Shown here piece by piece: positions 3,308 through 54,544 of a stretch of DNA of 64,000 nt (position 1 is the first letter of the stretch; every line of letters starts with the position of its first letter). The notes beneath the pieces were generated by a model that was not told where the DNA came from, did not search any database, and was given only the letters and a program-made list of their open reading frames with translations. The position numbers and the translations under genes were made by a program. The stretch comes from Candidatus Poribacteria bacterium (lineage in GTDB: Bacteria > Poribacteria > WGA-4E > WGA-3G): assembly GCA_965200205.1 (NCBI GenBank), contig CBDAUI010000002.1, forward strand, positions 599,218 to 663,217, in the 5' to 3' direction.

Positions 3308-3453
3308 GTTTTTAGCCGTCAGCCATCAGTTTTCAGTTGGCTGATAACTGACAATGACAACCATTGAAACTGATGGCTGGTTGCTGATCGCTGACGGCTG
3401 CCAACTAAATTCTATGGACAATTCAACAAGCGTTGTGGTATACTATATACACT

Positions 3454-5286: not shown

Positions 5287-6072
5287 ATGTGCCCGCAAAT
5301 GAACAAAACAATACTATCTAAACAGGAAAAAATAAAAAAATGGTTGCGAGAGCAGGCACTGCCTTTTGTCGTTTTATTGATTCTCATGTTCGGTTTTGTC
5401 CGTCCTTTTGTTGTTGAGGCGTATAGAATCCCTTCTGGCTCGATGGAGGATACACTGCTTGTTGGTGACCATATTTTCGTGTGTAAGTTTATCTATGGCG
5501 TTAAAATCCCCGGCACAGAGATAAAAATCTTTGATGTCCATCAACCTGCGCGCGGCGATGTCTTCGTCTTTATTCCATCACATGACGAGCGACATTTTAT
5601 CAAGCGTATGATAGCCATTGAAGGCGATACCGTTGAGACGCGTGGTGATACGCTTTATGTAAACGGTGAACCAGTTGATGATAGCCACTACACGAAATAT
5701 ATGAAATTTAGCCACTTTAAAAGAGATTTTCCGCCATTCCGAAGTCCAGAATATATACCGGCAGGTGAGAATTTCGACGATTATACTTTAACCGCAAGTC
5801 AATTCCGACGTGAGTTTCCCGATGGTAAGTCGTTTGTTGTGCCGAAAGGGATGGTTTTTGCGATGGGTGATAATCGCGATCTGAGCAGCGATAGTCGAGC
5901 TTGGGGACCGGTATCCGTAGATGACATCAAGGGACAGGCTTTCATGATTTGGTGGTCGGTTGCGGATCGTCCCGTAAAGTTCTGGGAGGTTTGGAAATTG
6001 GTGAGCAATATACGGTTTAATCGAATCGGCAAGCTGATCCGTTCTGAACCGGAATCGTTCAAAGCAAACTAA
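5287..6072 (+). CDS. lepB: Signal peptidase I
   Basis: S26 motifs IPSGSMEDTLLVGDHIFV (Ser box) and GDNRDLSSDSRAWGPV (Lys/Asp box); N-terminal TM helix. Confidence 0.9.
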   Translation: MCPQMNKTILSKQEKIKKWLREQALPFVVLLILMFGFVRPFVVEAYRIPSGSMEDTLLVGDHIFVCKFIYGVKIPGTEIKIFDVHQPARGDVFVFIPSHDERHFIKRMIAIEGDTVETRGDTLYVNGEPVDDSHYTKYMKFSHFKRDFPPFRSPEYIPAGENFDDYTLTASQFRREFPDGKSFVVPKGMVFAMGDNRDLSSDSRAWGPVSVDDIKGQAFMIWWSVADRPVKFWEVWKLVSNIRFNRIGKLIRSEPESFKAN

Positions 6073-6118
6073 ACCGGAAGAGGAGAGCATACTTTATTCG
6101 TAAAGGCGATACAATATC

Positions 6119-6886
6119 ATGAGTGATAACGACATCCAATTATCTAAATGGCAAAAATTTCGGAAAACCGTTACATGGGAATATACACAAGTAATCGTTG
6201 TGGCACTCATTCTCGTTTTCGGGTTCATACGTCCTTTCGTCGTTGAGGCGTTCAAGATTCCCTCCGGTTCAATGGAAGACACGCTCCTTATCGGGGATAG
6301 AATTCTGGTCTGTAAATTTATCTACGGCATTAAAATCCCGGGCACAGACATCAAGGTTCTCGATTTCCATAAGCCTGCCCGTGGCGACGTTTTCGTTTTC
6401 CTGCCACCGCATGACCGAGAACGAAACTTCATCAAACGCATCGTAGCGGTCGAAGGGGATACGATTGAAACACGCGGCAATACACTCTACGTGAACGGTG
6501 AAGCCGTTGATGATGGACACTATGCAAAATATGTTGCTTTCAGCCACTTTAAGAAAGATTTTCCGCCGTTCCGTCAACCCGAGTATCTGCCGGATACTGA
6601 GGAATTCTCCGATTATACCTTAACCTCGAGTCAGTTTAGACGCAAGTTTCCTGACGGCAAGTCGTTTACAGTCCCGAAAGGTAAGGTTTTCGCGATGGGA
6701 GACAACCGCGACCAGAGTAGCGATAGCCGCTCCTGGGGACCCGTAGATGTCAGCGACATTAAGGGGCAAGCGTTTATGGTGTATTGGTCATCTAATATGC
6801 GTCCGATAAAGATATGGGAAGTCTGGAAACTGGTTGGGAATGTCCGGTTCAATCGGATTGGTAAACTCATTCACGCGCATCGTTAA
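6119..6886 (+). CDS. lepB: Signal peptidase I, tandem paralog
   Basis: Same S26 motifs (IPSGSMEDTLLIGDRILV; GDNRDQSSDSRSWGPV); ~75% aa identity to the upstream copy by eye. Confidence 0.9.
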   Translation: MSDNDIQLSKWQKFRKTVTWEYTQVIVVALILVFGFIRPFVVEAFKIPSGSMEDTLLIGDRILVCKFIYGIKIPGTDIKVLDFHKPARGDVFVFLPPHDRERNFIKRIVAVEGDTIETRGNTLYVNGEAVDDGHYAKYVAFSHFKKDFPPFRQPEYLPDTEEFSDYTLTSSQFRRKFPDGKSFTVPKGKVFAMGDNRDQSSDSRSWGPVDVSDIKGQAFMVYWSSNMRPIKIWEVWKLVGNVRFNRIGKLIHAHR

Positions 6887-6921: not shown

Positions 6922-8862
6922 ATGCATCAAGATCAACGCCACGTTATCATCGGAACCGCAGGACATGTTGACCACGGGAAAACAGCACTCGTTGGCGCGC
7001 TCACCGGTATGGAGACAGACCGACTCAAGGAAGAACGCGAGCGCGGCATGTCTATTGAGTTGGGTTTCGCTTATTTCGATTTACCGGATAACTCACGTGC
7101 CGGTATCGTTGATGTACCCGGACACGAAAAATTCATCCGCAGTATGCTCTCCGGTGCCTACGGTATGGATATTGTTCTCTTTGTTGTCGATGCGAAGGAA
7201 GGCGTACAGGAACAGACGCTCGAACATTTGGCAATTCTGGACCTGCTCGGAATCTCGAACGGTATCCTCGTCATGACAAAATCTGACTTGGCAACCGCTG
7301 ATGAATTGGCTGAAGCCGCTGAAATGACACAAGAGATGCTCGTCGGTACAAGCCTCGAAGATATACCGACTGTCAGTGTTTCTGCAATAACCGGTGCTGG
7401 CATTGAAACGTTGAAGCAGACAATTGTTGAGCAGGTGACACTCGCAACGAAATCGGAAGAGAATGACGGTATTCCGAGATTATATGTTGATCGCGTGTTT
7501 ACTGTTCAAGGCTTCGGCGTTGTTGTAACGGGGACACTTATCGGTGGCTCCATTAATCGAGAGCAGCGGATGGTACTGCTACCGCAAGGTGATGTCGTTC
7601 GGGTTCGCGGGATACAGGTACACAATGAACCTGCGTCGGTCGCTTACGCGGGTCAGAGGACAGCCTTAAACCTCTCAGGGATGTCTGCTCAGGACATCCA
7701 GCGCGGCGATGTCCTCTGTCCTATCGACTATTCACAAGTGACCGACAACATAGACGTGTCTTTACAAGTGTTGTCTTCGTTTCCGCGAATCATTGAGCAT
7801 TGGAGCCGTTTCCGCGCGTATCTCGGTACCCGTGAGATATTTTGTCGGTTAATCCTGCTGGTGGATGAGGCGATTCTCCCCGGAGATAAAGTACAGGTAC
7901 AACTCCGTTTAGAACAACCGATTTTGACGTTTAGGGGCGACCGAATTATCATACGCGATTTCTCGGCACAACATACAGTCGGTGGCGGCGAGGTGATCAA
8001 TCCGTTTGCGCCGAAGCATAAACGATTCACGCCAGAGACCATTGCGACTTTAGCAGCGTGGGAAGAAGCCGATGACGCGCAGATCGTCAATATCGTACTG
8101 GCGAATAGCGAAACTCTCTGCGTTCCGGAATCGTTTCTCTATTACTATCTGCCGCACTCGCAAACGGATGTGAAAGCCATTTTAGACATGCTCAAGGCAG
8201 AAGGGAAAATTGTCCGTTGGGTGGAATCTGGGAGGCAACCCATCGTCTCGGATGCAGAACGGACGGAAACAGTTAAGGCACAAATGGTAGACGCGCTTAG
8301 CGCGTTTCACGAGGCGCAGCCGCTCCTTGCAGGGCAAAATGCCTCACAACTTCGCCGAAAACTAAGCCTCGATGAACAGAGTTTTGAAAGACTCGCGAAC
8401 CGACTCATTAAGGAGCACCAACTCGTTAAAGATGGGAATTTACTCCGGTTAGCCTCTCACGAAATCCAGTTCTCTCAAGAAGAGGAGACTGCGAAAGAGA
8501 AATTAGAACAACTGTTTTTGGAAGCCGGTATGAATACGCCGACGCTAAATGAACTCAGCACACTGCTGCCAGAATATACACCGAAAGTTCTTGAGTCTAC
8601 ATTTTACGCGCTTTTAAACTTGGGACGGTTTCTTAAAATAGCAGAAAACTTTTTCATCCATAAAACAAGATTTGAGGAAATCAGCGACACATTAACGACA
8701 TATCTACGTGAAAATGGGACGATAACTGTTGCGGAGTTCCGAGAAACCGCCGGGACTTCGCGGAAGTATGCCGTACCTTTTTTAGAGTACTGCGATACGC
8801 AGAATCTTACGGTGCGCGATGGGAACATCCGAAGGTTACATCCACGGCATTTGGAAACATGA
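6922..8862 (+). CDS. selB: Selenocysteine-specific elongation factor SelB
   Basis: [13 protein letters not shown]...DVPGHEKF G-domain with a SelB-type long C-terminal winged-helix extension (646 aa); tRNA-Sec lies immediately downstream. Confidence 0.9.
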
Positions 8863-8883: not shown

Positions 8884-8977
8884 GGGGGAGGATAGGGTCC
8901 GGTGGCCCTACCGGTCTTCAAAACCGGATAGTCCATACACGTGGATTGGTGGGTTCGACTCCCACCCTCTCCCGCCA
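8884..8977 (+). tRNA. selC: tRNA-Sec (selenocysteine tRNA, anticodon UCA)
   Basis: 94 nt. 8-bp acceptor stem GGGGGAGG/CCTCTCCC (one G-U). Anticodon stem CCGGT/ACCGG with loop CTTCAAA, anticodon TCA at 8918-8920. Long variable arm. 5-bp T-stem GTGGG/CCCAC with TTCGACT loop. Discriminator G plus encoded CCA. The 8/5 acceptor/T geometry is the bacterial tRNA-Sec form. Confidence 0.85.
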
Positions 8978-9093: not shown

Positions 9094-9975
9094 ATGATTC
9101 GCACAAAAGCAGCGCAAAACCGACATCCGGCATGGATAAAGGCGCGAATTCCCGGCGGCGGTAGTTACGCTGAACTGAAGAAACTCATGCGGGATCTACA
9201 ACTTCATACCGTCTGTGAAGAGGCGCGATGCCCGAATATAGGCGAATGTTGGAACAGTCGCACCGCAACCTTCATGATATTGGGAGATGTTTGCACGCGG
9301 CGATGTATGTTTTGCGCTGTGAAAAAAGGGAATCCTGATGGAAATGTTGATACCGATGAACCGCGACGGCTCGGGGAAGCGGTCGGTTATCTAAAACTGA
9401 ACCATGTTGTGATTACGTCCGTCAACCGTGATGATCTTAGCGATGGGGGCGCGAGTGTTTTCGCTGAATGTATCGCCGAAGCGCGGAAACATCGCCCCGG
9501 ATGCACTGTAGAGGTTCTTATCCCAGACCTTGAAGGGAATTGGGATGCACTCGGCGTTATCGTGAAAGCCAGACCCGAAGTGCTGAACCACAATACTGAG
9601 ACCGTACCACGTCTCTATCGTCGTGTCCGTCCGTATGCAAATTACCAGCAGACGCTAACGCTCCTACGAATCAGTAAGCGGCTTGATACCGAGATGCTCA
9701 CAAAATCCGGGCTCATGGTCGGTTTAGGCGAAACTGTGACTGAGCTCTTGGAGACAATGCAAGACATTCGTCGTACCGATTGCGATATTCTTACGATAGG
9801 GCAATATCTCTCACCATCTCCACGGCACCTGCCGATCCAACGCTACTATACGCCTGAAGAGTTTAATGAACTCAAGGAAGCCGGTATGGAAATGGGGTTC
9901 CGACATGTAGAGTCGGGACCGCTCGTTCGGAGTTCTTACCACGCAGGCGAGCAAGCGCGAATAGGGCAGTGCTAA
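9094..9975 (+). CDS. lipA: Lipoyl synthase
   Basis: CEEARCPNIGECW auxiliary Fe-S cluster motif and radical-SAM CTRRCMFC motif; start may instead be 9061. Confidence 0.9.
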   Translation: MIRTKAAQNRHPAWIKARIPGGGSYAELKKLMRDLQLHTVCEEARCPNIGECWNSRTATFMILGDVCTRRCMFCAVKKGNPDGNVDTDEPRRLGEAVGYLKLNHVVITSVNRDDLSDGGASVFAECIAEARKHRPGCTVEVLIPDLEGNWDALGVIVKARPEVLNHNTETVPRLYRRVRPYANYQQTLTLLRISKRLDTEMLTKSGLMVGLGETVTELLETMQDIRRTDCDILTIGQYLSPSPRHLPIQRYYTPEEFNELKEAGMEMGFRHVESGPLVRSSYHAGEQARIGQC

Positions 9976-10217: not shown

Positions 10218-10262
10218 TCTGGTAGGTTCGGTTTGCAACCGAACCGGATTCTACGCGGAAAT
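10218..10262. repeat. Dispersed ~45-bp palindromic hairpin element, copy 1
   Basis: tcYGGTAGGTTCGGTTTGCAACCGAACCGGATTCTACGCGGAAAT; 44/45 identical to 55615-55660; 9-bp stem GGTTCGGTT/AACCGAACC. Confidence 0.7.
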
Positions 10263-10329: not shown

Positions 10330-11136
10330 ATGATCCGTGTAATTATTAATGGGGCATGTGGTCGTATGGGACGGCTCATCATTCAAGGTGTGACGCAACA
10401 GACGGACATGGAAATTGTTGGCGCGATTGAATACCCCGAACACCCACAAATCGGTAGTGATGCCGGTGTCGTCGCAGGTATTGGCGAGATTGGTATCGCT
10501 ATTACAGGCGCGCTTGAAGATGTACTTGAAGATGCAGATGTCATCATCGAGTTTTCAAAGCCCGAAGTAACCGTGCAGCACCTCAGACAGGTTGTTGATA
10601 CTGACAAAGCGATGATCATCGCAACAACTGGATTCAACGCTGACGAACTCACGACAGTTAAGCAACTTGCCTCTCAAATTCGCTGTGTGATGGCACCGAA
10701 CATGAGCCTCGGTGTTAACGTGATGATTCAGGCACTTGAGCTCATTGCTAAAGCCCTCGGGGATGACTACGATATTGAGGTTATAGAGGCACATCACAAT
10801 CACAAAGCAGATTCACCGAGTGGAACCGCACTCCGTCTGGCAGAGACCGTCGCTGCGGCATTAGAACGCGACTTAGATGAGGTCGGGGTTTACGGGCGCC
10901 ACGGTATTGTCGGTGCGAGACCGAAGAAACAGATCGGTATCCATGCCGTGCGCGGTGGCGATATTGCAGGCGATCATACGGTACTGTTTGCAACCGAAGG
11001 TGAACAATTAAGTGTTGTCCACCGTGCCCACAGTCCTGAAGCTTTTGCCAAGGGGGCGATCCGTGCAGCGAGATGGGTTATTGATGCCCCTAAAGGACTG
11101 CACGATGTCAGCGAAGTCCTTTTTCAGAAGTCGTAG
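10330..11136 (+). CDS. dapB: 4-hydroxy-tetrahydrodipicolinate reductase
   Basis: N-terminal GACGRMG Rossmann motif and EAHHNHKADSPSGTA catalytic motif. Confidence 0.9.
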   Translation: MIRVIINGACGRMGRLIIQGVTQQTDMEIVGAIEYPEHPQIGSDAGVVAGIGEIGIAITGALEDVLEDADVIIEFSKPEVTVQHLRQVVDTDKAMIIATTGFNADELTTVKQLASQIRCVMAPNMSLGVNVMIQALELIAKALGDDYDIEVIEAHHNHKADSPSGTALRLAETVAAALERDLDEVGVYGRHGIVGARPKKQIGIHAVRGGDIAGDHTVLFATEGEQLSVVHRAHSPEAFAKGAIRAARWVIDAPKGLHDVSEVLFQKS

Positions 11137-11166
11137 GAACTAACTATAGGTTCAAAGGAATCTCTG

Positions 11167-11976
11167 ATGATCCGTGTTGTTATTATTGGTATTTGTGGTC
11201 GTATGGGACAGTGTCTCACGCGCTGCATTACTCAACAAACCGATATGCGGCTCGTTGGTGCTATCCAATATCCATCGCATCCACGCATAGGCAGTGATGC
11301 CGGTGTCGTCGCAGGTATTGGTGACATCGGTGTAGCTATCGCAGGTGAACTTGGGGATGTGCTTGAAAACGCGGATGTCGTTATTGAGTTTTCAAAACCT
11401 AAAGCGACACTCGGATACCTCCGACAGATTGTCAATACAGATAAAGCTATCGTTATTGGCACAACTGGATTTACCGGCGATGAACTCGCAACTGTCAAAG
11501 AACTCGCCGCACAGACTCGCTGCGTGATGGCACCGAATATGAGTCTCGGTGTCAATGTGATGATTCAGGCACTCGATTTAATTGCCAAAGCCCTTGGAGA
11601 TGATTATAATATTGAAGTCATAGAAGCGCATCATAATCATAAAGCAGATTCACCAAGTGGGACAGCATTCCGATTAACAGAGACACTCACCACAGCACTC
11701 GAACGAGATTTAGACGAGGTAGGCATTTACGGTAGACACGGTATTGTCGGTGCGAGACCGAAGAAACAGATCGGCATTCATGCCGTGCGCGGTGGTGATA
11801 TTGCCGGTGATCATACGGTACTGTTTGCGGCAGAAGGTGAACAATTAAGTGTCGTCCACCGCGCGCACAGTCCCGAAGCATTCGCGAAAGGTGCGATTCG
11901 TGCCGCGAGATGGGTCGTTGATGCCCCTAAAGGATTACACGATGTCAGCGAAGTCCTTTTCCCAGAGCAGCCCTAA
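11167..11976 (+). CDS. dapB: 4-hydroxy-tetrahydrodipicolinate reductase, tandem paralog
   Basis: Same motifs; ~80% identical to the upstream copy by eye. Confidence 0.9.
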   Translation: MIRVVIIGICGRMGQCLTRCITQQTDMRLVGAIQYPSHPRIGSDAGVVAGIGDIGVAIAGELGDVLENADVVIEFSKPKATLGYLRQIVNTDKAIVIGTTGFTGDELATVKELAAQTRCVMAPNMSLGVNVMIQALDLIAKALGDDYNIEVIEAHHNHKADSPSGTAFRLTETLTTALERDLDEVGIYGRHGIVGARPKKQIGIHAVRGGDIAGDHTVLFAAEGEQLSVVHRAHSPEAFAKGAIRAARWVVDAPKGLHDVSEVLFPEQP

Positions 11977-13996: not shown

Positions 13997-14755
13997 ATGA
14001 GGAAAAGGGAAATGACAGACGAACAAAAATACCTATTTGACTTACAAGGTTTCATCGTGTTAGAGGGAGTTATCCCGCAGTCAGTGATTGCTGCGTGTAG
14101 TGCTGTGTTAGATCAATATGAGAATATGCCGCCTGAAGATTATCCGCCTCCACTGTGCCTCGGTACACAGCGAACGGAGAAGGAACTCTATATCTCCAAT
14201 ATTCTGGAGGCAGACAGGGTCTTTAACGCGCTTATTGACATTCCAGAGGTACTGGACGTAATTCAAGGCGTAACCGGCGGTCCCTACCGGCTCAATCACA
14301 CCTATACGATTTATAGGTGGGGCGGCGGCTATACCGGACTGCACATGCATGGAACACCCATTATCCCGAAATGCCAATACCACTGCAAAAACGGAGAGAT
14401 GGTTTCAACCTTAACGAAGGCAGTTTTTCCGATGCTGGATTGCGACGTGGAAGATGGTTGTTTCGCTGCTATACCGGGGGCACACAAAAGTAATTTTCCC
14501 AAACCTTGGGGAAACCACCCTGATGAGAACCCTGTGTTAAGCCCGATTCCAGCGAAAGCAGGGGATGCCATTATCTTTACGGAGGCACTCACACACGGGT
14601 CTGTCATCAATGTTTCTGGCAAACCGCGTCGGACGCTTTATTACTGTTACAGTATCGGTTATATGCCGGATTGGGGTGGTCAAGGTTTGCATTTCAGCCC
14701 GAACGTCATGGCAAGCCTCACTGAAGTTCAGCAGTCAATCCTTCATCTTAAATAG
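13997..14755 (+). CDS. Phytanoyl-CoA dioxygenase (PhyH) family Fe(II)/2OG oxygenase
   Basis: N-terminal YLFDLQGFIVLEGVI and overall PhyH-like layout; assigned from motifs only. Confidence 0.6.
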   Translation: MRKREMTDEQKYLFDLQGFIVLEGVIPQSVIAACSAVLDQYENMPPEDYPPPLCLGTQRTEKELYISNILEADRVFNALIDIPEVLDVIQGVTGGPYRLNHTYTIYRWGGGYTGLHMHGTPIIPKCQYHCKNGEMVSTLTKAVFPMLDCDVEDGCFAAIPGAHKSNFPKPWGNHPDENPVLSPIPAKAGDAIIFTEALTHGSVINVSGKPRRTLYYCYSIGYMPDWGGQGLHFSPNVMASLTEVQQSILHLK

Positions 14756-14805
14756 TTGTCAGTACGATTTTTTCTCCGAAAAAAATCTTTCAGTTGTCAG
14801 TTACC
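14748..14805. repeat. ~55-bp repeat element at a gene 3' end, copy A
   Basis: TTAAATAGTTGTCAGTACGATTTTTTCTCCGAAAAAAATCTTTCAGTT; contains the AT hairpin GATTTTTTC/GAAAAAAATC; supplies the TAG stop of the PhyH-like gene. Confidence 0.7.
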
Positions 14806-14988
14806 CTGTTGTGGTTTTAGGGTATGTTGTGGAATCCAAAAGAAAACTAACAATCACAAGATGTTAACCGAATACTGATAACCGACAACCGATAACTATT
14901 AAAATTGATAACTGAAAGCGTAGCGTACTGATAACTAATAACTATTCCCTCTAACAACTGAGAACTACTAAAAAGGTAAATTTAAAAT

Positions 14989-16164
14989 ATGATTTCATTT
15001 TCGGAACGGTTACAAAAACTTCCACCCTATCTCTTTGTAGATTTGCGTCAAAGGATGCAGGCAGCGAAAGCGCGAGGCGTTGATGTCATTAGCCTCGGCA
15101 TCGGCGATCCCGATTTCCCGACACCGGATCCAGTCGTTGGGGCACTCGTGCAGGCGATCCAGAATCCTGAAGATCCAAACCGGCATCGCTATGGATGCGA
15201 CATCCCTGTTGAGGATTTCCCGCAAGCAGTGCTCGACTTTTATCAACGGCGTTACGGCGTTACGCTTGCCGAAGATCAAGTCGCTACGACGCTCGGTAGC
15301 AAGGATGCGATCGTTAAATTGGCACTCGGCATCCTCAATCCTGGGGATATCGGCATTGCAGCAAGTCCGGGGTACCCGACATATAACATCGGACACGTTT
15401 TTGCGAGTGCGACGACGTACTACGCACCGATTCTGCGAGAAAACGATTTTTATGTTGACTTTGATGCGATTCCTGATGAAATCAAACGTCTTGCCAAAGT
15501 CCTCTGGATCAATTATCCGAACAACCCGACGACGGCGACTGCTGATCTTGATTTTTTCGAGCGTGCTGTGGAATTTGGAAGGCAGAATGACATCCTGATT
15601 GCGCACGACAACGCTTATAGTGAAAATACGTACGATGGCTACCATTCTCCGAGCATCTTGCAGGTCGATGGTGCTGCTGAGGTTGCTGTCGAATTCTTCT
15701 CATTGAGTAAAGCGTTTAATATGACCGGATGGCGATTAGGGTTTGTCGTTGGGCATCCGGCTGCCGTGAGTGCCGTCAAGACGGTTAAAGACAACATTGA
15801 TAACGGTTCACTCCGCGCACTTCAGTTTGCCGGGGCGCAGGCACTGTCGATGGCAGAGGAGATCACACCCGCAATAAATGCTGTTTACGAAAAACGGCGG
15901 GATGTTGTTGTAGATGCTTTGGCAGAGAGCGGATGGGAGATAGAAAAACCGAAGGCGACAATATATGTGTGGGCACCAGTCCCACCGCGTTTCGACGGTT
16001 CGAGTCGCGCTTTTGCAACAGCACTCCTTGAAGAAGTCGGCGTTGTCGTGACACCCGGACTCGGATACGGGCAGTGGAGCGAAGGGTACTACCGAATCTC
16101 ACTCACTTATCCTGATGAAGTCATCAGTGAAGCGATTTCACGTCTCCGTGATTTTGCACATTAA
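14989..16164 (+). CDS. PLP-dependent class I/II aminotransferase, probably LL-diaminopimelate aminotransferase (DapL type)
   Basis: N-terminal LPPYLF...ISLGIGDPDFPTP resembles DapL; 391 aa; sits in a dapB-containing neighbourhood. Confidence 0.7.
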   Translation: MISFSERLQKLPPYLFVDLRQRMQAAKARGVDVISLGIGDPDFPTPDPVVGALVQAIQNPEDPNRHRYGCDIPVEDFPQAVLDFYQRRYGVTLAEDQVATTLGSKDAIVKLALGILNPGDIGIAASPGYPTYNIGHVFASATTYYAPILRENDFYVDFDAIPDEIKRLAKVLWINYPNNPTTATADLDFFERAVEFGRQNDILIAHDNAYSENTYDGYHSPSILQVDGAAEVAVEFFSLSKAFNMTGWRLGFVVGHPAAVSAVKTVKDNIDNGSLRALQFAGAQALSMAEEITPAINAVYEKRRDVVVDALAESGWEIEKPKATIYVWAPVPPRFDGSSRAFATALLEEVGVVVTPGLGYGQWSEGYYRISLTYPDEVISEAISRLRDFAH

Positions 16165-16217
16165 ATAGTTGTCAGTCGTCAGTACGATTTTTTCCGCGAA
16201 AAAATCTTTCAGTTTGC
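16161..16217. repeat. ~55-bp repeat element at a gene 3' end, copy B
   Basis: TTAAATAGTTGTCAGTCGTCAGTACGATTTTTTCCGCGAAAAAATCTTTCAGTT; ~90% identical to copy A with a 7-bp internal duplication (CGTCAGT); supplies the TAA stop of the aminotransferase. Confidence 0.7.
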
Positions 16218-16323
16218 CTCGCAGTGAGAGTTAAAAAGTGTCCAGTGGTTTCCAGTTAAAAGTTAACAGGAAAAGAGAGTTCTGGTAACTGGACACTGAT
16301 AACTGTTAACTAATCCTCTCTGG

Positions 16324-19300
16324 TTGATAATGCTTATGATATTACAAACTAACTTCCGTTTAGAAAGTTTCAGACATCTACAAACGCGGGCTAAAAACCT
16401 GCTTCTATTAGTGGTTAGTATCGTCTTTGGTGCGGTTCTCGTTTGTGGTGGTGTAAGGGCTGATCAGGTTCAGACGTATACCGTTGCTGATGGCTTGGTG
16501 GGTCCTATTGTCCCTGTTATTTTCCAAGACAGTCGGGGCGCGCTTTGGTTCGGTTCCGATCGCGGTGGCGTAAGCCGGTTTTACGACAACACTTTTAAAT
16601 CGTATGTCGGATCCTTGAACACTTATGAGGATGTTGAAGCAGGTGCACTGCTCGGACAGACGCGGCAAATCGTTGAGGATAAATGGGGACACATCTGGTT
16701 TCTCACACGTGTTCCGTCAGAAAAATCGGGTAGAGTTAGCCGGTTTGACGGTAAGTCGGTCAGTTATGTCGGCACCGGGAACTCCATTATCACAGATCAA
16801 CACGGTGATATATGGGTCGGTGAAAATCATGTGCTAACGCAGTACGTGACACCGGGGGTCGAAAGATTACCGCAGCCTCAACCTCATGAAATCATAGGTG
16901 AAGATCTAATCAAATCGACAACTTTGACGATAAATGTCGTTTTTGAAAGTGAAGATGGAACGCTCTGGCTCGGCGGGAGTGAAGGTGAAGCGGCAATAAA
17001 TGGTGTCATCCTAAGTTTTCGTGGGAACCGTTGGAGACGTGTGGTACCTGATGAAGGTAACGGGAGCGACGAGGCTGAAACGGAGGTCGGCACGCCGCGT
17101 ATTCATCCAAACGCCGGTTTTACACGACACGATGTGTCCAGCCTTAATGTGGTTAGCCCGGTCGAGGCGATCGCTGAAGATTCTATCGGCAATCTTTGGT
17201 TCGGCGGCGATAATCTCCTTCTCCGCTTTGATGGTATAGATTTTCAACAGATTCTTCCTACATGGTCTTACACCGGACGCAAATCTTCAGATGAAACGCC
17301 ATTGAGAAGACCGGCTTCAATTAAGATTGATGCAAAAGGAGATGTGTGGTTTAGCGATGAGCGACCCGCAAGACGGTGGGACGGCTCTAACCTCCGTACA
17401 CCCAGAGATGTACACGGGTTTCTTGAAATTGAAGATAAATGGAACAACCTATGGTTCATCAGCGAAGGCCGTGGTGTCCGTCAATATAATTCCGACTTTG
17501 AGCTCCTTTTAGATAACGCGAATAGTAGACTCGAAAACGATGAAATCCGAACAATATTTGAAGCCGTTGACGGTAAATTGTGGTTCGGACACAACAACGG
17601 TGTAACAATCCTTGATCCGACACCTGCAGTGATTACACATGCGAAACTGGGGACCAGTCGGGTCCGCACGATGTATGAGGACAGTCGCGGTTACCTCTGG
17701 TTCAGCGTTCCAGGTGCTGTCGCGCGTTATGATGCCAAGATAGATGAGATCACAACAGCATCATTCAGGCTAAGTGATGAGCGAAATGAGGCTGGGACTG
17801 AACCAAATATGAACCGGCGCTCTCAGGCTGAAATCGTGAAAATATTTGAAGTCGGCAGGGATGTCTGGTTTATTAATGAACCGGTATCCCGGAGCACTTC
17901 AACGCGATATACATTCTTCCGCTACGCAAATGGGAGCTACGGGCCCCAAATCTCTATTTCTGTCCGCACAAAAATCGGTCCTGGCGGTGACAGGTCAGAT
18001 AGCGACCCGAGTGTACTTCTTAGCGGAGGCGAATATGTTTGGATGGCTTTTGGCGGACATCTTTTCAAAGCAGACACCATGGGGCTTTTGTGGATCACAG
18101 ATAGAAGTACACAAAGAATCCTATTTCAAAAATCCTCTGAAATAGATAGTGCGACCCCTACGCTTCAGATAGACCCAGGACCCGTTCCGATAACAGATTT
18201 ATATAGAGATTCAGCGGATAGGTTATGGGTGCATTTCGCCAACGGGAGCGTAAAACGCTATCCCAAGGATATCAATCTTGCGTCGCCTACAATGAGTTCT
18301 ATCCCGCCGGACCTGCTGCGGCTCAAAGCAACTCACCTTGTAAAATCGACACCGGAAGATAAATGGTATTTCAACGCAATGACAGGAAAGTTGATACGCT
18401 GGAGCGACATCGAATCTGGCAAACCAATTATCCTTGATGGTGAATCAAGTGCCGCACCACTCGCAGTCTGGCAAGAACCTGCCAGTCAGATCGATAGAAT
18501 CACTTTCGTCTTTTCTGATGCGCTTAGGACCTACCACGGTAAAATGCTAAGAACTGTTGATCCTATCGGTCCAATCGATACTGTAAACGCTTCTCTGATT
18601 ACGAGAGATGGCGTTCTCTGGTTAGCGACATCCCACGGTGCCGTCCGATACGATGGAGAAAGACTCAGGACATATACGAGGAAGGAAGATGGTTTTCTTG
18701 TGGATAATGTCCGCGATGTTGTAGAAGACAGTCGCGGAAATATATGGTTCGCGACAAGAGGTGGCGGTGCCGTCCGATATGATGGTGAAACTTTCCACAG
18801 TCGAACGACGAAAAACGGGTGGGCACACAATAACATCTCAAAAATCCTTGAATCTTCTGAGAAAGACATCTGGTTTGCGACTGAAGGCGGTGTTACACAG
18901 TATACACCCGCGCGGGGCGGGTTACCAGAGTGCAGAATAATCAGCTTGGAGGCGGATAAGTCTTACAGCGATTTCTCGTCGAGTTTAGTTTTACCGACGC
19001 GCGGTGCTAAAACTTTCAATGTTCGCGGACTCAGCTCACTTCGAGAAGGTCTTTCTTATCAATTTAAATTGATTGGGTTGGACACACCAACCTGGATGAA
19101 CGTCTCCGCGGAGGACTTCGCGAATCTTCCTGTCGTCTCCACCGCGCGAGCAGACGAATGGACCCCATTTGCCGGATCCATTGCGACGGAGCAACAGAGC
19201 CTCAATAATATCGGTGTTACGCAGGAGATCCAGAACCAAAACGGTATTTTGCGGATTCGATACGCCGGGCTTAAGGCAGGACATTATACTTTCCTCATCA

Positions 19301-22176: not shown

Positions 22177-22324
22177 AGAGACTCCTCTGGAGGAAGTTAC
22201 CAATAACCAGTAGCCAGTAACCAGTTAAGAGACGTTGGATTCACCGAATACCTCCTTTACTGGTAACTTTGATCAACAACTCGTTTGTAGATACTTTTGC
22301 TAAGGCGCGAGTTGTTGGTCAAAA

Positions 22325-28437: not shown

Positions 28438-30261
28438 ATGCTCATTAACTCTGGGACATCTCGGAGTCTCGTCCTGTCTGGAAATATCCACGATCTCTTT
28501 TTTTTTAAAGAAGAAGATAGTACGGATTATATTCCACTCGTCCCCTTTTTAACACACAGTTGGGATATACCTGGATTCATCCTGATCGTTTATGAACTCA
28601 ACGGGCCCATACGTTTCGCGCAGGAGTCGGACCGCGAAAAGGTGAAACATGCCTTCAACCGATGGCGAGGGACAGCCGAATCTGACACTGATATAGATGC
28701 CCCACCCAGCACCTCGCGCCGCCGCGAGTCTATCGTTGGATCACTTGACACCGCTATAGAACCCTCTAATGTCTCTTTCTCACAGTACATGACGGATGCG
28801 ATCGGCAGCCCGACGCTTGCGCTCGAACTCCTCCGCCAGTTTTGTCTACTTTCGCGTAGCACAAACAGAGATGGCGAAAAATTTCTCTCTGAAAAACTGA
28901 TTATCCTCATAGAAGCAGCCGATATGCTGCTGCCAGAAGGCGAAATACGCGGTTTGTCACTTCAGGATAGGCATCGGGTCAGTATCGTTCAAGACTGGAT
29001 TTCCGATTCCAATTTCATGAACGGTAACGATACTGTCATCTTCGTTACAGAATCTGCCAGTCTTCTAAACTCTCGGATTATTAGGTTGCCACAGGTTGTC
29101 AACGTTGAAATCCCGGCACCGGGGATGTCGGAGCGTCAGCACTTCATTTCGTGGTTTAATAACACGCCGCAATTGATCGCGAAACCGTTAAACCTATGGG
29201 GTACACAAGCGCAACTCGCAATGCTGACAGCCGGATTATCCATACAGGCACTCCGCCAAATGCTGCTCTACGCCTGTTATTCCGGTGAGAAACTTCAACC
29301 CGAAGATGTTATTGAGAAGGTTTCTGAATTCATCCAGACCCAGTTGGGTGAAGATGTTGTCGAGTTTAAAAAGCCTGCACACAGCCTAAAAGACATCGTC
29401 GGTAACCGAAAGTTAGTGGATTTCCTAAAAACGCAGTTGATTCCGCGTATCACCTCAACGGGTCCCGACGCGATTCCGGGAATGAGCGTCTGCGGTCCCA
29501 TCGGCAGCGGAAAAACCTTTATTTTTGAGGGACTCGCCGGTCAACTCGATATCCCGGTCCTCGTCCTCAAGAACATCCGGAGTATGTGGTTCGGACAGAC
29601 AGATGTCATCTTTGAACGACTCCGACGGTTACTGATGGCACTGGTGAAGGTGTTAATCTTTGTTGACGAAGCGGATACGCAATTTGGAGGTGTCGGGAGG
29701 GAGGCACACAGCACAGAACGGCGTTTGACGGGAAAAATACAGGCGATGATGTCGGACCCGCAGCTGCGTGGCAATATCACATGGCTTCTGATGACTGCCC
29801 GAATCTATAACCTCTCACCTGATTTACGACGCGAAGGCAGAGTCGGGGATATGGTGGTTCCGGTATTGGATCCGCGCGGTGAAGACCGTGAGGATTTCCT
29901 ACGCTGGACGATTGCGAAGGTCTCCTCCAGTCCGTTTTCTGAGGAAGATATTCAACGACTCCTGAAAGTAACCGAGGACTATTCTGCCGCGAGTTTCGCC
30001 TCGCTACGTTCCGACCTTGAAGCCGCCAGTCTTATCAAAGCGAGCTCAGAAACAACCGGTGAGCTTACAATCGATGAAATCATCGCTGTCGCCGAAGATC
30101 GGATCCTACCGAATATCGGACCCATAAGACAGTATCAAACCTTGCAAGCACTCCTCAATTGCACACGAAAATCTTTACTCCCCGTGGACTATTCCCCAGA
30201 AATCCGTGAATCGTGGGCGAAACAGATTGCCCAACTCGAAGCATTGGGTGTTAGGGGATAG
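28438..30261 (+). CDS. Classical-clade AAA ATPase with ~330-aa uncharacterized N-terminal region
   Basis: Walker A GPIGSGKTF; Walker B LIFVDEAD; sensor-1/second region of homology LLMTARIYNLSPDLRREGRVGD (cf. ATNRPD.LDPALLRPGRFD). Confidence 0.75.
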   Translation: MLINSGTSRSLVLSGNIHDLFFFKEEDSTDYIPLVPFLTHSWDIPGFILIVYELNGPIRFAQESDREKVKHAFNRWRGTAESDTDIDAPPSTSRRRESIVGSLDTAIEPSNVSFSQYMTDAIGSPTLALELLRQFCLLSRSTNRDGEKFLSEKLIILIEAADMLLPEGEIRGLSLQDRHRVSIVQDWISDSNFMNGNDTVIFVTESASLLNSRIIRLPQVVNVEIPAPGMSERQHFISWFNNTPQLIAKPLNLWGTQAQLAMLTAGLSIQALRQMLLYACYSGEKLQPEDVIEKVSEFIQTQLGEDVVEFKKPAHSLKDIVGNRKLVDFLKTQLIPRITSTGPDAIPGMSVCGPIGSGKTFIFEGLAGQLDIPVLVLKNIRSMWFGQTDVIFERLRRLLMALVKVLIFVDEADTQFGGVGREAHSTERRLTGKIQAMMSDPQLRGNITWLLMTARIYNLSPDLRREGRVGDMVVPVLDPRGEDREDFLRWTIAKVSSSPFSEEDIQRLLKVTEDYSAASFASLRSDLEAASLIKASSETTGELTIDEIIAVAEDRILPNIGPIRQYQTLQALLNCTRKSLLPVDYSPEIRESWAKQIAQLEALGVRG

Positions 30262-30367
30262 TAAGAAAAATGCTGCATTAGTACGCGACGCAATTTTGTG
30301 CTATAATGGTAATGTGTAACGAACACAGTGTGGTGTTTTATAACAACATTTCAGAAGGAGAAGTACC

Positions 30368-30661
30368 ATGTCATATTCTGATGCTACCTCTGAAACCATC
30401 GCCGCCCGCGGCGAAGAAATCTATCAGCAGTACCGCGAAGAACTCGAAGCTCAACACAAAGGTCAGTTTTTTGTAGTTGACATTGAAACGGAAAACTATG
30501 AAATCGCCGATGAGGATTTGGAAGCGACAAAACGTCTGCTTGCTAAGAATCCCAAGGCTATGACTTACGGGGTGCGAATCGGATACCCGGCCACCCACGG
30601 TATCGGCTTCAGCTTCGTAGAATGGAATGTGGAATACTATAATGATAACAGGGAAAATTAG
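30368..30661 (+). CDS. Small conserved hypothetical protein (copy A of a duplicated pair)
   Basis: 97 aa; ~65% identical to the 31022-31288 product (shared SETIAARGEEIYQ...FVVDIETENYEIADEDLEAT); preceded by a TGnTATAAT extended -10 at 30298-30306. Confidence 0.6.
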   Translation: MSYSDATSETIAARGEEIYQQYREELEAQHKGQFFVVDIETENYEIADEDLEATKRLLAKNPKAMTYGVRIGYPATHGIGFSFVEWNVEYYNDNREN

Positions 30662-31010
30662 AGACGAACGTGTAGCTATCATTGAAGTGGAAGTGATCGG
30701 CTTAAATCAACGCGCGAAAATTGAGGCAACTCTTGATACCGGATTTACGGGCTATCTGACACTACCAGAGTTTTTAGTTGACTACTTAAGGCTTCCATAG
30801 ATTGGTACTCGGCACACAATTATTGCTCATGGAAGAGCAGTAATCCTTGACCTGTATCTTGCCAAAGTGATTTGGCACGGCAAAGAACGCGATATAGAAG
30901 TTCTGCAAACAGACAAGCAACCGTTAATCGGTATGTCGTTGCTTCGCGGAAGTCGTGTAACACTTGATGTTGTGCCAGATGGCGACGTAACGATTGCTCC
31001 GCTGCGATAG
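30642..31010 (+). pseudogene. Retropepsin-like (clan AA) aspartic protease gene with an in-frame TAG at 30798-30800
   Basis: MITGKIRDERVAIIEVEVIGLNQRAKIEATLDTGFTGYLTLP carries the catalytic D-T-G. The same frame continues after the TAG with ...VILDLYLAKVIWHGKERDIEVLQTDKQPLIGMSLLRGSRVTLDV, a retropepsin C-terminal-like segment. The ATG overlaps the 3' end of the upstream small gene. Confidence 0.55.
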
Positions 31011-31021
31011 GGAGAATCACT

Positions 31022-31288
31022 ATGCTATATTCTGATGAGACCTCCGAAGCCATCGCTGCCCGCGGTGAAGAAATCTATCAGTCCTTGAAGGATGAGCTTG
31101 AATCTCAATACAAAGGCAAAATTTTTGTAGTTGACATTGAAACAGGGAACTATGAAATTGATGATGAGGATTTAGAAGCTACAGCCTGTCTCTTTGCGAA
31201 GAATCCCGACGCTGTTACTTATGGTTTACGCATTGGCTTCGTACCTATCTATAAACTCGGTTTTAGATCTTACGGTTGGAAACCTTAA
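31022..31288 (+). CDS. Small conserved hypothetical protein (copy B)
   Basis: 88 aa paralog of the 30368-30661 product. Confidence 0.6.
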   Translation: MLYSDETSEAIAARGEEIYQSLKDELESQYKGKIFVVDIETGNYEIDDEDLEATACLFAKNPDAVTYGLRIGFVPIYKLGFRSYGWKP

Positions 31289-31373
31289 CCGTGGTTTTCC
31301 ATTATCAATAAAAGCGAAAGGTGTTTCAGTAAAATCTCAAAACAGATCCATATTCAAACAACTTTCAATCACA

Positions 31374-32920
31374 ATGTGGCATATCGCAACTTTTGCTTTT
31401 CTTCTATTCTGCATAACAACCGTAGTTCCCGCCCAAACTGTTGAGCAAATTGCTGAAAAAGCATTAGCGGCTACGGTCTACTTGGAGATGAAGGACAGCA
31501 CCGGCAAAACCATCGGATTTGGTAGTGGTTTCTTCGTGACGGAAAATCTGATCGCTACGAACTATCACGTCATAGAAGGTGCAGCAACTGGTACTGCACG
31601 ATTAGTGCAAAACACTCGAAATACGCCCAAGCTTAACCCTGAGTTGAATAAAGCCCACATTAATTTCATTAATAAATACGAGACATACACTATCGAAGGG
31701 TCTACTGCTACTGACGAAACAAACGATCTTGTACTCTTAGAGGTATCGACACGTATCAAGGATCCAGATTTATTGAAAATTTATAGGCAACTATTCCCTA
31801 TCCAACCTCTGTCTATTGGTAACAGCGCCGAAGTCAAAACTGGGACACTGGTATACGTTGTGGGAAATCCAAAAGGCTTAGAAGGTACATTCTCAAGTGG
31901 CATTATCAGCAGTCGTCGCAGGAGGCTCACTGAGGAACGCCTACAGATGACAGCTCCAGTTTCCCCGGGGAGCAGCGGTGGGCCTGTCCTAAATAATAAA
32001 GGTGAAGTAATTGGAATCGCCTTTATGACTATTGAAGGCGGACAGAATCTTAATTTTGCGATTCCCTCAAACTACCTTAAAACACTACTCCTTCAATCTG
32101 GAACAGTAAAACCCCTGTCAGAGAACGAACAATCCATCTCCGCGGAGACGTATTTCCTACGAGGCGAGGCGATGAGGGAGATGGAACTATATGAGGAAGC
32201 AATTGCAGCTTATGACCAAGCAATACGTCTAAAACCAGATTATGTTGAAGCATATAACGAACGGGGCGTTGCCAAAATTATGCTAGGACAATATTTCGCC
32301 GCTATTGCTGATTTTGACCAGGCAATACAACTCAAACCCGATTATGCAGATGCATATACACATCGTGGAACTGTGAAGACAATTCTAGACCAAAATTCTG
32401 CCGCGATTGCCGATTATGATAGGGCAATTCAAATAACACCTGATGATGCCTTTGTGTACCATTTTCGTGGTATGGCAAAAGAAACTTTGAAACAATATTT
32501 TGCTGCTATCTCCGATTTTGACAAGGCCATAAAACTAAAACCTGACTTTGCCGAAGCATATCACAAGCGGGGGAGATAAAGATCGTTCTCGGTCAACCTC
32601 GTGCTGCCATCTCTGATTTCAACAAAGCCATAGAATTAAAACCTGATGATGCTGAAATATACTATAGTCGGGGATCCGTGAAAGGATTTCTGAAGCAATA
32701 CTTTGGTGCCATCTCTGACTTTGACAAGGCTATAGAATTAAAACCTGATTTTGCCAAAGTATACGTCAGTAGAGGCATTTCAAAGCACAAACTGGGACAA
32801 ACTTGGGAGGCAAAACGGGATATCCAAATAGGGTTGAAAATTGCTGAACGGACAGGTGATACAGATACCAAGGATCTTGCCGAGCTTACACTTCGTTTTC
32901 TTGAAACCAGTGGAAGATGA
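31374..32920 (+). CDS. Secreted trypsin-like (S1) serine protease with C-terminal TPR repeats; frameshifted at a G5 homopolymer near 32569-32573
   Basis: Signal peptide MWHIATFAFLLFCITTVVPAQT. S1 domain (GFGSGFFVTENLIATNYHV; TAPVSPGSSGGPVLN with the catalytic Ser). 34-aa TPR repeats continue seamlessly across the frame change (…AEAYHKRG | EIKIVLGQPRAAISDFNKAIELKPDD…). Confidence 0.7.
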
Positions 32921-33195
32921 AAACTAAATGTTATGTTTGCTATGCAACGCGAACTTGACTGTATGCCGTCAGACGAACGCTACGCAAGGTTTGAACAGCG
33001 TCAAAAAGAGATGGAAGTACTATCGCTTTTGAGGATAATCAGGGTAATACGGACGAACATATCGATGAACTTCATGGGATTTGGGGTGATATTTATCAGA
33101 CCGTTGGTCTCCAACAAGGACTAAGTACCGAGGCTCTAAGATTTGGTGCAACACTCATATCACCTACTCCACTCAGTAAGCCCCTTGGCGAGGAA

Positions 33196-40550: not shown

Positions 40551-41114
40551 TTATTCTGACGGCGTGTAGTTCTTAATCGTCACTTTTGTCATAACATCAC
40601 GTTCGCGGAGTGCTTCTACAACATCCATCCCTTCAATGACTTTGCCGAATGTGGTATAGCTGCCGTTCAGGTGTCCAACACTTCTTGGATCCGAGGTAAG
40701 ACAGATGTAAAACTGGCTTCCAGCTGAGTTTGGGTTCTGTGTTCGTGCCATAGCAACAACCCCTTTTTCATGCGGAGGCATCTTCTCACGGAGCGTGGGG
40801 TCTTGAAATTCACCTGGGATTGTCCATCCAGGGCCACCTCTGCCGGTCCCTTTCGGGTCCCCGCCTTGGATGACAAAACCGGGAACATAGCGATGGAAAG
40901 CCACACTATCGTAAAATCCAGCCTCTATTAACTTCGCAAAATTTGCGACTGTCGCAGGGGCAGCTTCAGGGTAAAGTTCTATAATAATGTTGCCTTTTTG
41001 GGTTTCTATCGTTACATTAGGCAATTGTTCACTGTTGCATGAAACAATTGTTACTAAAAACGCACCTAATAAGCTTAATTGCATAATTTGCGTGTGAAAA
41101 CAGGGAAGTTTCAC
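40551..41114 (-). CDS. Cyclophilin-type peptidyl-prolyl cis-trans isomerase, secreted/lipoprotein
   Basis: HRYVPGFVIQGGDP and SQFYICL cyclophilin signatures; N-terminal signal peptide ending VSC. Confidence 0.9.
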   Translation of the reverse strand: MKLPCFHTQIMQLSLLGAFLVTIVSCNSEQLPNVTIETQKGNIIIELYPEAAPATVANFAKLIEAGFYDSVAFHRYVPGFVIQGGDPKGTGRGGPGWTIPGEFQDPTLREKMPPHEKGVVAMARTQNPNSAGSQFYICLTSDPRSVGHLNGSYTTFGKVIEGMDVVEALRERDVMTKVTIKNYTPSE

Positions 41115-54507: not shown

Positions 54508-54544
54508 CCGGATGCCTACTGACAACTGAAAACTACTAAAAAAT

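Follow-up and report, generated by a model that had tools for sequence, protein, structure and literature searches.

Tandem repeats with a unit of seven nucleotides are over-represented among the simple-sequence repeats of bacteria, possibly through polymerase slippage (PMC4692102). Those of Xanthomonas (GGGAATC) and Nostoc (GGGGAYT) were described by Rehm et al. in 2015: 89-93% of them are intergenic, mostly with aligned open reading frames (ORFs) on either side, and they lie close to or overlap the stop codon; they are rare between divergent ORFs, form 70-75 convergent inverted pairs per genome, vary in length and sequence between relatives and are mostly transcribed, and they carry G-tracts, are read as G-quadruplex formers and were reported at unusually stable loci (PMC4692102). 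In cyanobacteria, 7-bp STRR hairpins occur between genes such as hupS and hupL, and they may raise transcript stability or couple translation (PMC2670836). The subject here is a repeat of comparable build in a stretch of 64,000 nt from Candidatus Poribacteria, hereafter the window, which occurs among other places upstream of an aminotransferase gene and is probably an STRR-like hairpin family of intergenic heptanucleotide tandem repeats, proper to one clade of these bacteria. Poribacteria are uncultured sponge symbionts, known only from metagenome-assembled genomes (MAGs) and single-cell genomes, and a literature search found no description of such repeats in them. As for the cyanobacterial STRR (short tandemly repeated repetitive) heptamers, they were reportedly described by Mazel et al. 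in 1990; the units STRR1-3 of heterocystous cyanobacteria are CCCCAGT, TTGGTCA and CAACAGT, the first and the third of which contain CAGT.

The recurring unit is a 7-nt tandem repeat with two variable positions, (CAGTTNN)n on one strand and (NNAACTG)n on the other. An earlier note on this DNA had proposed the 22-mer GACAACTGAAAACTGATAACYG as the repeating unit; with up to three mismatches, this sequence matches only 59912-59933 (exactly) and 3320-3341 (3 mismatches), so that what recurs is the heptamer with its two free positions. Regarding its frequency in the window, AACTGANAACTG, with at most one mismatch, was found 14 times against 1.18 expected, a count that 0 of 100 shuffles reached, and 13 of these matches lie outside genes; CTGATAAC was found 13 times against 1.74 expected, and again no shuffle reached the count. 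The sole two-unit match within a gene (47478-47491, in the FtsX-type permease gene at 45966-49331) is isolated and partnerless, and it is probably due to chance. Chains of two to four units occur at 17 places, and 10 of the about 45 spacers, roughly one fifth, carry arrays; Tandem Repeats Finder called arrays of period 7 or 14 at 14865-14896, 22195-22225, 44699-44730 and 52194-52209.

The same period emerges from the distances between CAGT/ACTG cores. Pairs of cores spaced by 7 nt number 14 in the 7,651 intergenic bases of the window and 0 in its 56,349 coding bases, and 0-3 intergenic pairs are seen at any other spacing in the range 4-15; in 27 loci from close relatives, of about 21 kb each, the intergenic pairs are 73 at spacing 7, 38 at spacing 14 and 0-5 at other spacings, and the spectrum peaks at 7 and 14 only. 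In these related loci, where intergenic DNA amounts to 60 kb and coding DNA to 496 kb, the coding part contributes 30 pairs at spacing 7 as compared with the 73, and several of those 30 are due to errors of the gene map. The enrichment between genes, on which the earlier note had staked its case, is therefore present both in the window and in its relatives; moreover, the motif is carried by every position that it had named (3327-3352, 14868-14945, 16289-16302, 41299-41325, 44704-44724, 44763-44776, 54521-54536, 56761-56775 and 59908-59932), and further sites are found at 14753-14805, 16166-16262, 22196-22269 and 3367-3407, along with a variant array at about 52190-52229.

The usual element measures 60-220 nt and consists of two mutually inverted arrays, which serve as arms of a long hairpin with imperfect pairing; at some sites only one arm is present. 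Starting from the stop codon, the order is TAGTT-(CAGTTNN)n, a junction CAGTTAAGAG of the form CAGTTAA(A)GAG, a loop of variable length (15-45 nt), the mirror junction CTCTTAACTG, or CTC(T)TTAACTG, and then (NNAACTG)n-AACTA and a ribosome-binding site; the stems are A+T-rich and precede AACTA and the ribosome-binding site. The left array often provides the stop codon itself, with the TAG of its TAGTT. Junctions of the CAGTTAARGAG type number 25 in the loci of the clade defined below and 3 in all other loci. The start of the array lies 1-26 nt from the stop codon, which is TAG in 15 of the 26 genes preceding an array and in 96 of 357 others, a comparison that includes orthologues and thus non-independent cases; in genes ending with TAA or TGA, TAGTT is usually found within a few bases downstream. 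As for the type of spacer, arrays are present in 25 of 180 same-direction, 4 of 32 convergent and 2 of 33 divergent spacers.

The capacity of these elements to fold is evident when the spacer is taken as a whole. That between the PhyH gene and the aminotransferase gene (14753-14980) has a folding energy of -57.2 kcal/mol with z = -5.08, and its segment 14753-14805 pairs with 14903-14940; among 163 same-direction spacers of the clade, the median z is -3.8 for those with both arms and -0.34 for those free of arrays (Mann-Whitney p = 1.8e-8).

Regarding the distribution of the repeat, a search with the aminotransferase returned 80 loci, the best of which belong to Candidatus Poribacteria MAGs, the single-cell genome WGA-3G and complete chromosomes, with 85-98% amino acid identity, followed by lower-GC Poribacteria (78-84%) and then by Planctomycetota. 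The clade loci are those with an aminotransferase at least 85% identical, namely L001-L026 and L078, with a GC content mostly of about 0.48. The two-unit pattern occurs in 24 of these 27 loci, with up to 6.1 matches per 10 kb and mostly almost all of them intergenic; in the loci of more distant Poribacteria (mostly of lower GC) and Planctomycetota it is essentially absent, with no intergenic match, and the peaks at spacings 7 and 14 are confined to the clade. The repeat family is real and lineage-specific, the latter as the earlier note had supposed. An assembly artefact was considered and rejected, as the arrays appear in independent short-read MAGs, in the single-cell genome WGA-3G and in complete long-read chromosomes.

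Within the clade, the elements turn over rapidly. Comparison of relatives shows changes in the number of units and at the variable positions, together with duplication, inversion and loss of arms and of the modules nested in them (described below); genomes with flanking proteins 90-98% identical differ in whether an entire element is there at all. For the PhyH-to-aminotransferase spacer, the window has 233 bp, L001 has 193 bp and L002 has 196 bp (the proteins of the latter two being 98% and 97% identical), and these three differ in arm lengths, loops and module positions; it reaches 319 bp in L020, and it is reduced to 12-31 bp, free of arrays, in L005, L010, L011, L016, L017 and L024. The aminotransferase-to-phosphatase spacer holds arrays and module in the window, where it measures 159 bp; its length is 157 bp in L004, a remnant of 71 bp is left in L025, and L001 and L003 have 32 bp free of arrays, the protein of L001 being 98% identical. 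Finally, the spacer between dapB and a BNR-repeat gene holds arrays in L010, L011, L016, L018, L020, L023 and L024, and none in the window. Variable positions are homogenised within lineages; in this last spacer, one sub-lineage (L016, L018, L020 and L024) has (TTTTCAG)4, and the units of L010 and L011 are mixed. The short 'empty' spacers retain AACTA, which may be a seed, a target or a deletion scar; in addition, the loop of 22196-22269 resembles that of a non-orthologous element of L009 (9826-9925), a likeness that suggests copying between sites. Such turnover among close relatives argues against a signal, promoter or untranslated region (UTR), that is specific to one gene, and the elements appear dispensable at any single locus. 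A further small repeat, containing AACGTAAGCCCGTAATGAAATGGAGGG, was noticed in the PhyH-to-aminotransferase spacer of relatives without arrays, or having lost them (L003, L012, L025 at about 9891-9914, and L016 at 11310); it is reversed in L019 and L026.

As for the processes behind these changes, we attribute them to slippage of replication on the 7-nt period, to template switching or fold-back together with recombination among arrays, and to elements being copied from spacer to spacer. Most elements lie between same-direction genes and are therefore probably transcribed; they would thus fold into stable stem-loops in the 3' ends of transcripts or in intercistronic RNA, which might act as a generic structure (a decay barrier, a processing site or a weak pause), a role of the kind suggested for the STRR hairpins of cyanobacteria and for REP sequences. 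Such a role of the stem-loops at the RNA level is conceivable, the greater weight falling on an element that acts at the DNA level or is neutral (selfish).

However, it should be noted that several observations weigh against an STRR-like hairpin family with a function in RNA, a function that we infer. Several sites are single arms, and the right arm upstream of the aminotransferase gene, folded alone, is unstructured (z = +0.88). The two strands, sense and antisense, do not differ in how well they fold (Wilcoxon p = 0.26), so that a role in RNA is not separable from one at the DNA level or from a neutral palindrome. The hairpins are without a U-tract, no intrinsic terminator was called at any array, and the two arrays that abut a -35 site (see below) may influence the initiation of transcription. 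The counts have their own bounds: the division into intergenic and coding DNA comes from a crude map of the longest ORFs, the comparison covers the 64-kb window and 27 loci of about 21 kb, and many of the spacers compared are orthologous, making the counts, TAG enrichment included, non-independent. Searches with Rfam 15 yielded only tRNA-Sec in the window, and permissive searches of 14700-16400 and 41100-41800 gave nothing credible.

Many arrays host a smaller structure, a mini-hairpin module of about 27-35 nt with the order CAGTAC-GATTTTTT-loop-AAAAAATC-TTTCAGT, often placed inside a unit between CAGT-AC and TTT-CAGT and found in either orientation. Both spacers that flank the aminotransferase gene open with an almost identical stretch of 50 nt, AAATAGTTGTCAGT(CGTCAGT)ACGATTTTTTC..CGAAAAAAATCTTTCAGTT, and contain the module at 14760-14794 and 16180-16213. 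A pattern search for CAGT-AC-[G(A/G)T5-8]-loop-[A5-8(T/C)C]-TTT-CAGT returned 15 strict copies, all flanked by the CAGT cores of arrays and sometimes two per spacer (L002, L566); the insert between the flanking cores is 24-29 nt, the stem has 7-8 bp, and 99% of the stem cells are paired in the 15 copies. Three copies of the module are located in other Poribacteria-like contigs with different neighbour genes (L290, L565, L566), and the loop of the one in L565 is flipped, CGGAG and not CTCCG.

A covariance model built from the strict copies gave 23 matches at E <= 0.01, each of them within the clade or on a Poribacteria-like contig, and the matches of the module span at least seven spacer contexts, L290, L565, L566, L013 and L015 among them, in both orientations. 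Weaker matches have the same flanks and other self-complementary stems, namely GGGTTTC/GAAACCC (L013), GGTGGC/GCCACC (L012), GCCTGC/GCGGGC (L024) and AGTTTGC/GCAACT (L015). Regarding covariation, the seed alignment has one covarying pair only (AU 12, GC 2, one mismatch), a level that 19 of 500 shuffles reach; when the variants recruited by the model are included, 4 of the 7 stem pairs change on both sides and 0 of 500 shuffles do as well, in an alignment that is fitted to the model and thus biased towards structure. Among orthologous arrays, the module is present in the window, L001 and L006, and missing on that arm in L078 and L007, a difference that mobility of the module, or else arm-to-arm copying and array turnover, could explain. 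In addition, L020 (at about 9800-9950 and at 11432), L014 (19805) and L024 (3007, 15321 and 15378) harbour another hairpin element, some 125 nt long, which contains GGCGAGGTTAGAAACCTCGCC and has the ends TGAAG...CTTCA; the comparison of L020 with L018 places it within a mini-hairpin module, hence as a nested insertion.

It may be, although this is rather doubtful, that the module, and perhaps the whole heptamer-armed hairpin, is a transposase-free element that propagates itself, inserting at one fixed point of the heptamer, after CAGT, via a hairpin or template switch, as a counterpart in an unrelated phylum of the small dispersed repeats (SDRs) of Nostocaceae. If so, heptamer arrays in general would be landing pads and nurseries for such elements, and the paired arrays met in unrelated high-GC contigs from soil and peat (see below) would point to a widespread mechanism that is so far undescribed. 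The elements of the window are collected in Table 1.

Table 1. Heptamer arrays and hairpin elements of the window (TRF, Tandem Repeats Finder; CM, covariance model of the module)
Element	Positions	Setting	Composition	TRF, CM and fold
Composite hairpin	3314-3407	Between 3-keto-disaccharide hydrolase gene and lepA	Left arm 3314-3338 (AGCCGTC AGCCATC AGTTTTC AGTT), inner CTGATAACTGACAA 3339-3362, right arm 3367-3407 ending AACTA	3308-3412 folds at -39.4 kcal/mol with z = -4.66 (0/200 shuffles reach this)
Left arm	14753-14805	PhyH-to-aminotransferase spacer	Begins within TAG stop (TAGTTGT CAGT...); module 14760-14794: CAGTAC-GATTTTTT-CTCCG-AAAAAAATC-TTTCAGT	CM 73.6 bits
Right arm	14866-14967	Same spacer; ends 21 nt before aminotransferase ATG	Degenerate (NNAACYG)n ending AACTA; units in 14868-14960: AACCGAA TACTGAT AACCGAC AACCGAT AACTATT ... 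ATAACTG ... TACTGAT AACTAAT AACTA; 14904-14938 is a degenerate, shortened inverted module copy (ACTGAAAG-CGTAGCG-TACTG)	TRF period 14; module copy CM 32.4 bits, minus strand
Spacer-filling element	16166-16312	Aminotransferase gene to SpoIIE-type phosphatase gene	TAGTTGT CAGTCGT + module 16180-16213, motif GCCTCGCAGTGAGAG 16216-16230, inner arms 16238-16262 and 16282-16312 ending AACTA	Module CM 61.3 bits; fold of 16226-16320: z = -2.68
Hairpin element	22196-22269	Between two minus-strand genes	(CAGTNNC)n-CAGTTAAGAG, loop, CTCCTTTACTGGTAACTT	TRF period 7, 4.4 copies; fold alone weak, z = -1.17
Short hairpin	41300-41331	Divergent spacer; ends 8 nt upstream of -35 of promoter-like site 41339-41368	TAGTTTTCAG-loop-CTGAAAACTGAA	Fold of 41285-41345: z = -2.41
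Hairpin element	44698-44788	SnoaL-domain gene to thioesterase gene	Arms 44698-44735 (left, with CAGTTAAAGAG at its end) and 44756-44773 (right, CCCCTTAACTGATAACTG), followed by TTTTCACTGCGAAGC	44690-44785 folds at -31 kcal/mol with z = -4.53 (0/200 shuffles reach this)
Variant single array	52190-52229	Adjoins ribosome-binding site of gene starting 52249	CGACTGC TGACTGC TGATAGC CGACGGC TAATAGC TA	TRF period 7
Single right-type array	54516-54535	Ends 9 nt before methyltransferase ATG	CTACTGACAACTGAAAACTA	
Single short array	56756-56782	Between two minus-strand GFO/IDH/MocA genes	Genes' strand reads CAATCAGTAATCAGTTA, opposite to other arrays preceding starts	
Single array	59910-59940	Divergent spacer; ends 12 nt upstream of -35 of promoter-like site 59952-59981	TTGACAACTGAAAACTGATAACCGACAGCCG; sole exact match of the 22-mer	

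In the element upstream of lepA, the outer arms (3314-3330 and 3385-3400) are built on a CAGCCNT-type unit, which resembles the variant array at 52190-52229.

Among the alternatives, the hairpins could be MITEs, non-autonomous miniature transposable elements with inverted repeats, moved in trans by a transposase whose gene lies elsewhere in the genome, with the arrays as their terminal inverted repeats; the ends of the parent insertion sequence (IS) would then match TAGTTNNCAGTT. The earlier note had considered a small MITE, and the part of this proposal that holds is the inverted-repeat, dispersed and present-or-absent character: the ends TAGTT...AACTA recur, elements come and go at orthologous sites of close relatives, their junctions and in part their loops are alike in non-orthologous spacers (the pair formed by 22196-22269 and its L009 counterpart), and their size fits. 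What did not emerge is the apparatus of a MITE, as no target-site duplication is definable, no parent IS was identified, and Pfam scans of 50 ORFs found no transposase, RAYT or other mobiliser in the window. In addition, the 'empty' sites are not clean excisions, given that AACTA remains, single-arm sites are common, and the arms vary in the number and sequence of their units as a simple-sequence repeat does, unlike a fixed terminal repeat; therefore, a MITE is unlikely.

Next, the arrays could be contingency repeats, phase-variable or tuning, in which slippage would alter a spacing or an RNA structure and so tune the adjacent gene within the population. The number of copies does differ among close relatives, the location upstream of genes and beside promoters is compatible with such a function, and there is the precedent of a heptanucleotide repeat upstream of hmw1A in Haemophilus influenzae (PMC8262952, PMC12721329). 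However, the genes beside the arrays have housekeeping or metabolic functions (lepA and the aminotransferase, thioesterase and methyltransferase genes) and are not surface or host-interaction genes, about one fifth of all spacers carry arrays, and most arrays are placed between a stop codon and the next ribosome-binding site, not between promoter elements, all of which renders this option improbable.

A promoter or 5'-UTR element, one that RNA polymerase, a sigma factor or a regulator would recognise and that would control the downstream gene, had been favoured at the outset because of the position of the motif just upstream of start codons. This position is indeed frequent, with arrays often ending 9-40 nt before a start codon, and two of them end 8-12 nt upstream of a consensus-like -35, where an UP-element or an activator would sit; still, arrays begin at or near the upstream stop codon equally often, which indicates that they simply fill the spacer. 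No -35/-10 pair with a gap of 16-18 nt occurs inside the arrays, and none was predicted in those of same-direction spacers; the arrays of the divergent spacers end 8-12 nt upstream of separate TTGACA-18-TAnnnT sites (41339-41368 and 59952-59981), and hence are beside promoters and are not promoters themselves. Moreover, arrays are rarest precisely in the divergent spacers, which must hold promoters, their orientation to the downstream gene is not fixed (CAGTNNN on the gene strand at 56756-56782, NNAACTG before the start elsewhere), the 7-nt period loses helical phase, and the array is not kept in orthologous spacers, that upstream of the aminotransferase gene being replaced by a short array-free one in six relatives. 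On these grounds, a promoter or UTR element is very improbable.

Least credible of all, the arrays could be tandem sites for a lineage-specific DNA- or RNA-binding protein, nucleoid-associated or repeat-reading, in keeping with a conserved 5-nt core, CAGTT, beside two free positions and with confinement to one lineage; however, no candidate protein was identified, the sites are dispensable at orthologous positions, and the same core occurs in arrays of unrelated high-GC environmental contigs, which argues against a reader protein specific to Poribacteria.

These environmental arrays deserve a comment in relation to the STRR-like family. At least 120 stretches of the metagenome collection and at least 120 of the viral collection contain the pattern (CAGTTNN)4, with GC from 31% to 70%. 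Among the matches listed, a few are evidently from Poribacteria and most belong to contigs from soil, peat or freshwater; some 80% are intergenic, and of those with a same-strand gene before them, about half start no more than 20 nt from its stop codon. The control cores GACTT, TCGAT and CTGTA gave at least 120, 72 and 55 stretches, respectively; heptamers with other cores are common as well, and the abundance of CAGTT alone says nothing. The two differ in the presence of an inverted partner: among the matches listed, this partner is downstream in 32 and upstream in 3 of 262 CAGTT arrays, against 1 and 5 of 131 for GACTT, 0 of 54 for CTGTA, and, in the case of TCGAT, a core that overlaps with its reverse complement, 5 and 0 of 76. 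This bias towards inverted pairs is the only feature that sets CAGTT apart from the control cores. Arrays of the form (CAGTTCY)n or (CAGTTGK)n, often placed directly after a stop codon and separated by a short loop from an inverted (..AACTG)n array downstream, were seen in L083, L093, L095, L098, L100, L105, L113, L117, L125, L153 and others; these are metagenomic contigs with GC of 0.58-0.66, from unrelated soil, peat and freshwater sources, and the architecture is that of the Poribacteria elements.

The window has other features of note. A second dispersed palindrome, TCYGGTAGGTTCGGTTTGCAACCGAACCGGATTCTACGCGGAAAT, occurs at 10218-10262, 55616-55660 and, inverted, at 60968-60997, and also in L001 (14910) and L022 (18214 and 18320); two of the copies in the window are 98% identical, the third is on the other strand, and all are intergenic and G+C-rich with a GTAG head, so that this palindrome looks REP-like and unrelated to the heptamers. 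The selB gene (6922-8862), for the elongation factor specific to selenocysteine, is directly followed by tRNA-Sec (8884-8977; anticodon TCA; 76.4 bits with Rfam). Tandem duplicates with 71-85% DNA identity are found at 5287-6886, 10330-11976, 55649-57865, 61007-62834 and 30357-31236, and they comprise two genes each for signal peptidase I, dapB, GFO/IDH/MocA oxidoreductase and FGE-sulfatase-domain proteins, together with a segment of about 220 nt (small ORFs, no Pfam match).

The region 41339-41768 starts with a strong promoter-like site (TTGACA-18-TATCCT, with an upstream TG) and continues for about 400 nt without a long ORF or a match in Rfam; an ORF of 85 amino acids within it (41469-41726) matches the DisA/DAC domain only weakly, over its C-terminal part and below the cut-off (E = 2.6e-5), and may be a gene fragment. 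Patches of low GC at 58001-60000 (0.40) and 30001-34000 (0.44), compared with about 0.48-0.52 elsewhere, may be acquired DNA; their genes include an HNH endonuclease (58803-59756), an ORF without a Pfam match (58162-58647) and a protein with a GmrSD_C restriction-endonuclease domain (33196-34029). The HNH endonuclease gene adjoins one array, and no evidence links the two. Finally, the tandem periodicity of 102 nt detected by Tandem Repeats Finder (periods 102 and 204) at 34261-36084 and 32195-32775 is coding; it stems from the repeats of 34 residues in two TPR proteins and has no relation to the heptamers.

In practical terms, a repeat family that fills about one fifth of the spacers is a source of assembly breaks, of variation in spacer length and of strain markers, and its arrays should not be annotated as promoters or small RNAs. 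The nested mini-hairpins, in turn, offer a second, independent system for testing the SDR idea of very small mobile elements.

It remains to place this repeat among known systems. The REP/BIME sequences of enterobacteria and pseudomonads are G+C-rich unique palindromes with a 5' GTAG, linked to RAYT transposases; the Poribacteria elements share with them the intergenic palindromic units in mosaics with small motifs, the location between operon genes and the proposed stabilisation of mRNA or weak termination. REP/BIME was rejected as an identification because the arms are A+T-rich tandem heptamers without a GTAG head, and no RAYT is present in the window. The SDRs of Nostocaceae, reportedly described by Elhai et al. 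in 2008, are said to be very small (about 21-27 nt), hairpin-forming and nested. The module is alike in being tiny, hairpin-forming and dispersed, in its location inside heptamer arrays in both orientations, in its nested combinations, and in subfamilies that share structure and not stem sequence. It differs in phylum, SDRs being restricted to Nostocaceae according to PMC5861425, and many of its copies could be explained by arm-to-arm copying of the palindrome. MITEs such as the Correia elements of Neisseria (reviews PMC10969869 and PMC3184786) are likewise 60-220 nt long, with inverted ends, intergenic beside genes and present or absent between strains; the Poribacteria elements differ from them in that neither a target-site duplication nor a parent IS nor a fixed terminal repeat emerged, and in that the arms act as simple-sequence repeats.

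Nearest in kind are the STRR hairpins of cyanobacteria and the paired heptamers of Xanthomonas. The likeness in layout to the Xanthomonas and Nostoc heptamers lies in the intergenic location between aligned ORFs, the proximity to the stop codon, the rarity in divergent spacers, the convergent inverted pairs and the variability between relatives; the difference is that those repeats were reported at stable loci, whereas presence and absence vary between close relatives in Poribacteria. A G-quadruplex-type heptamer was rejected, as units such as CAGTTAT, CAGTTGT and CAGTTAC have no G3-4 tract; it follows that the shared layout cannot depend on quadruplexes, and its recurrence here, adjacent to stop codons, in inverted pairs and between same-direction genes, implies that it is general to heptamer repeats.

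With the STRR repeats, the family has in common a 7-bp tandem intergenic unit, hairpins between co-transcribed genes and restriction to a lineage: its arrays are head-to-tail, strongly restricted to non-coding DNA, and vary in copy number and sequence in the orthologous spacers of 28 genomes. The cyanobacterial STRR1-3 proper were rejected on the basis of their units and of their host, the unit here being CAGTTNN and the host a member of Poribacteria and not a heterocystous cyanobacterium; inverted pairs with the CAGTTAAGAG junction and TAGTT/AACTA ends, moreover, are the rule in the Poribacteria repeat. In conclusion, the repeat matches the heptamer-repeat class in every structural feature tested and differs in its unit, its host and the absence of G-tracts; it is a further member of that class and not a new type of system.

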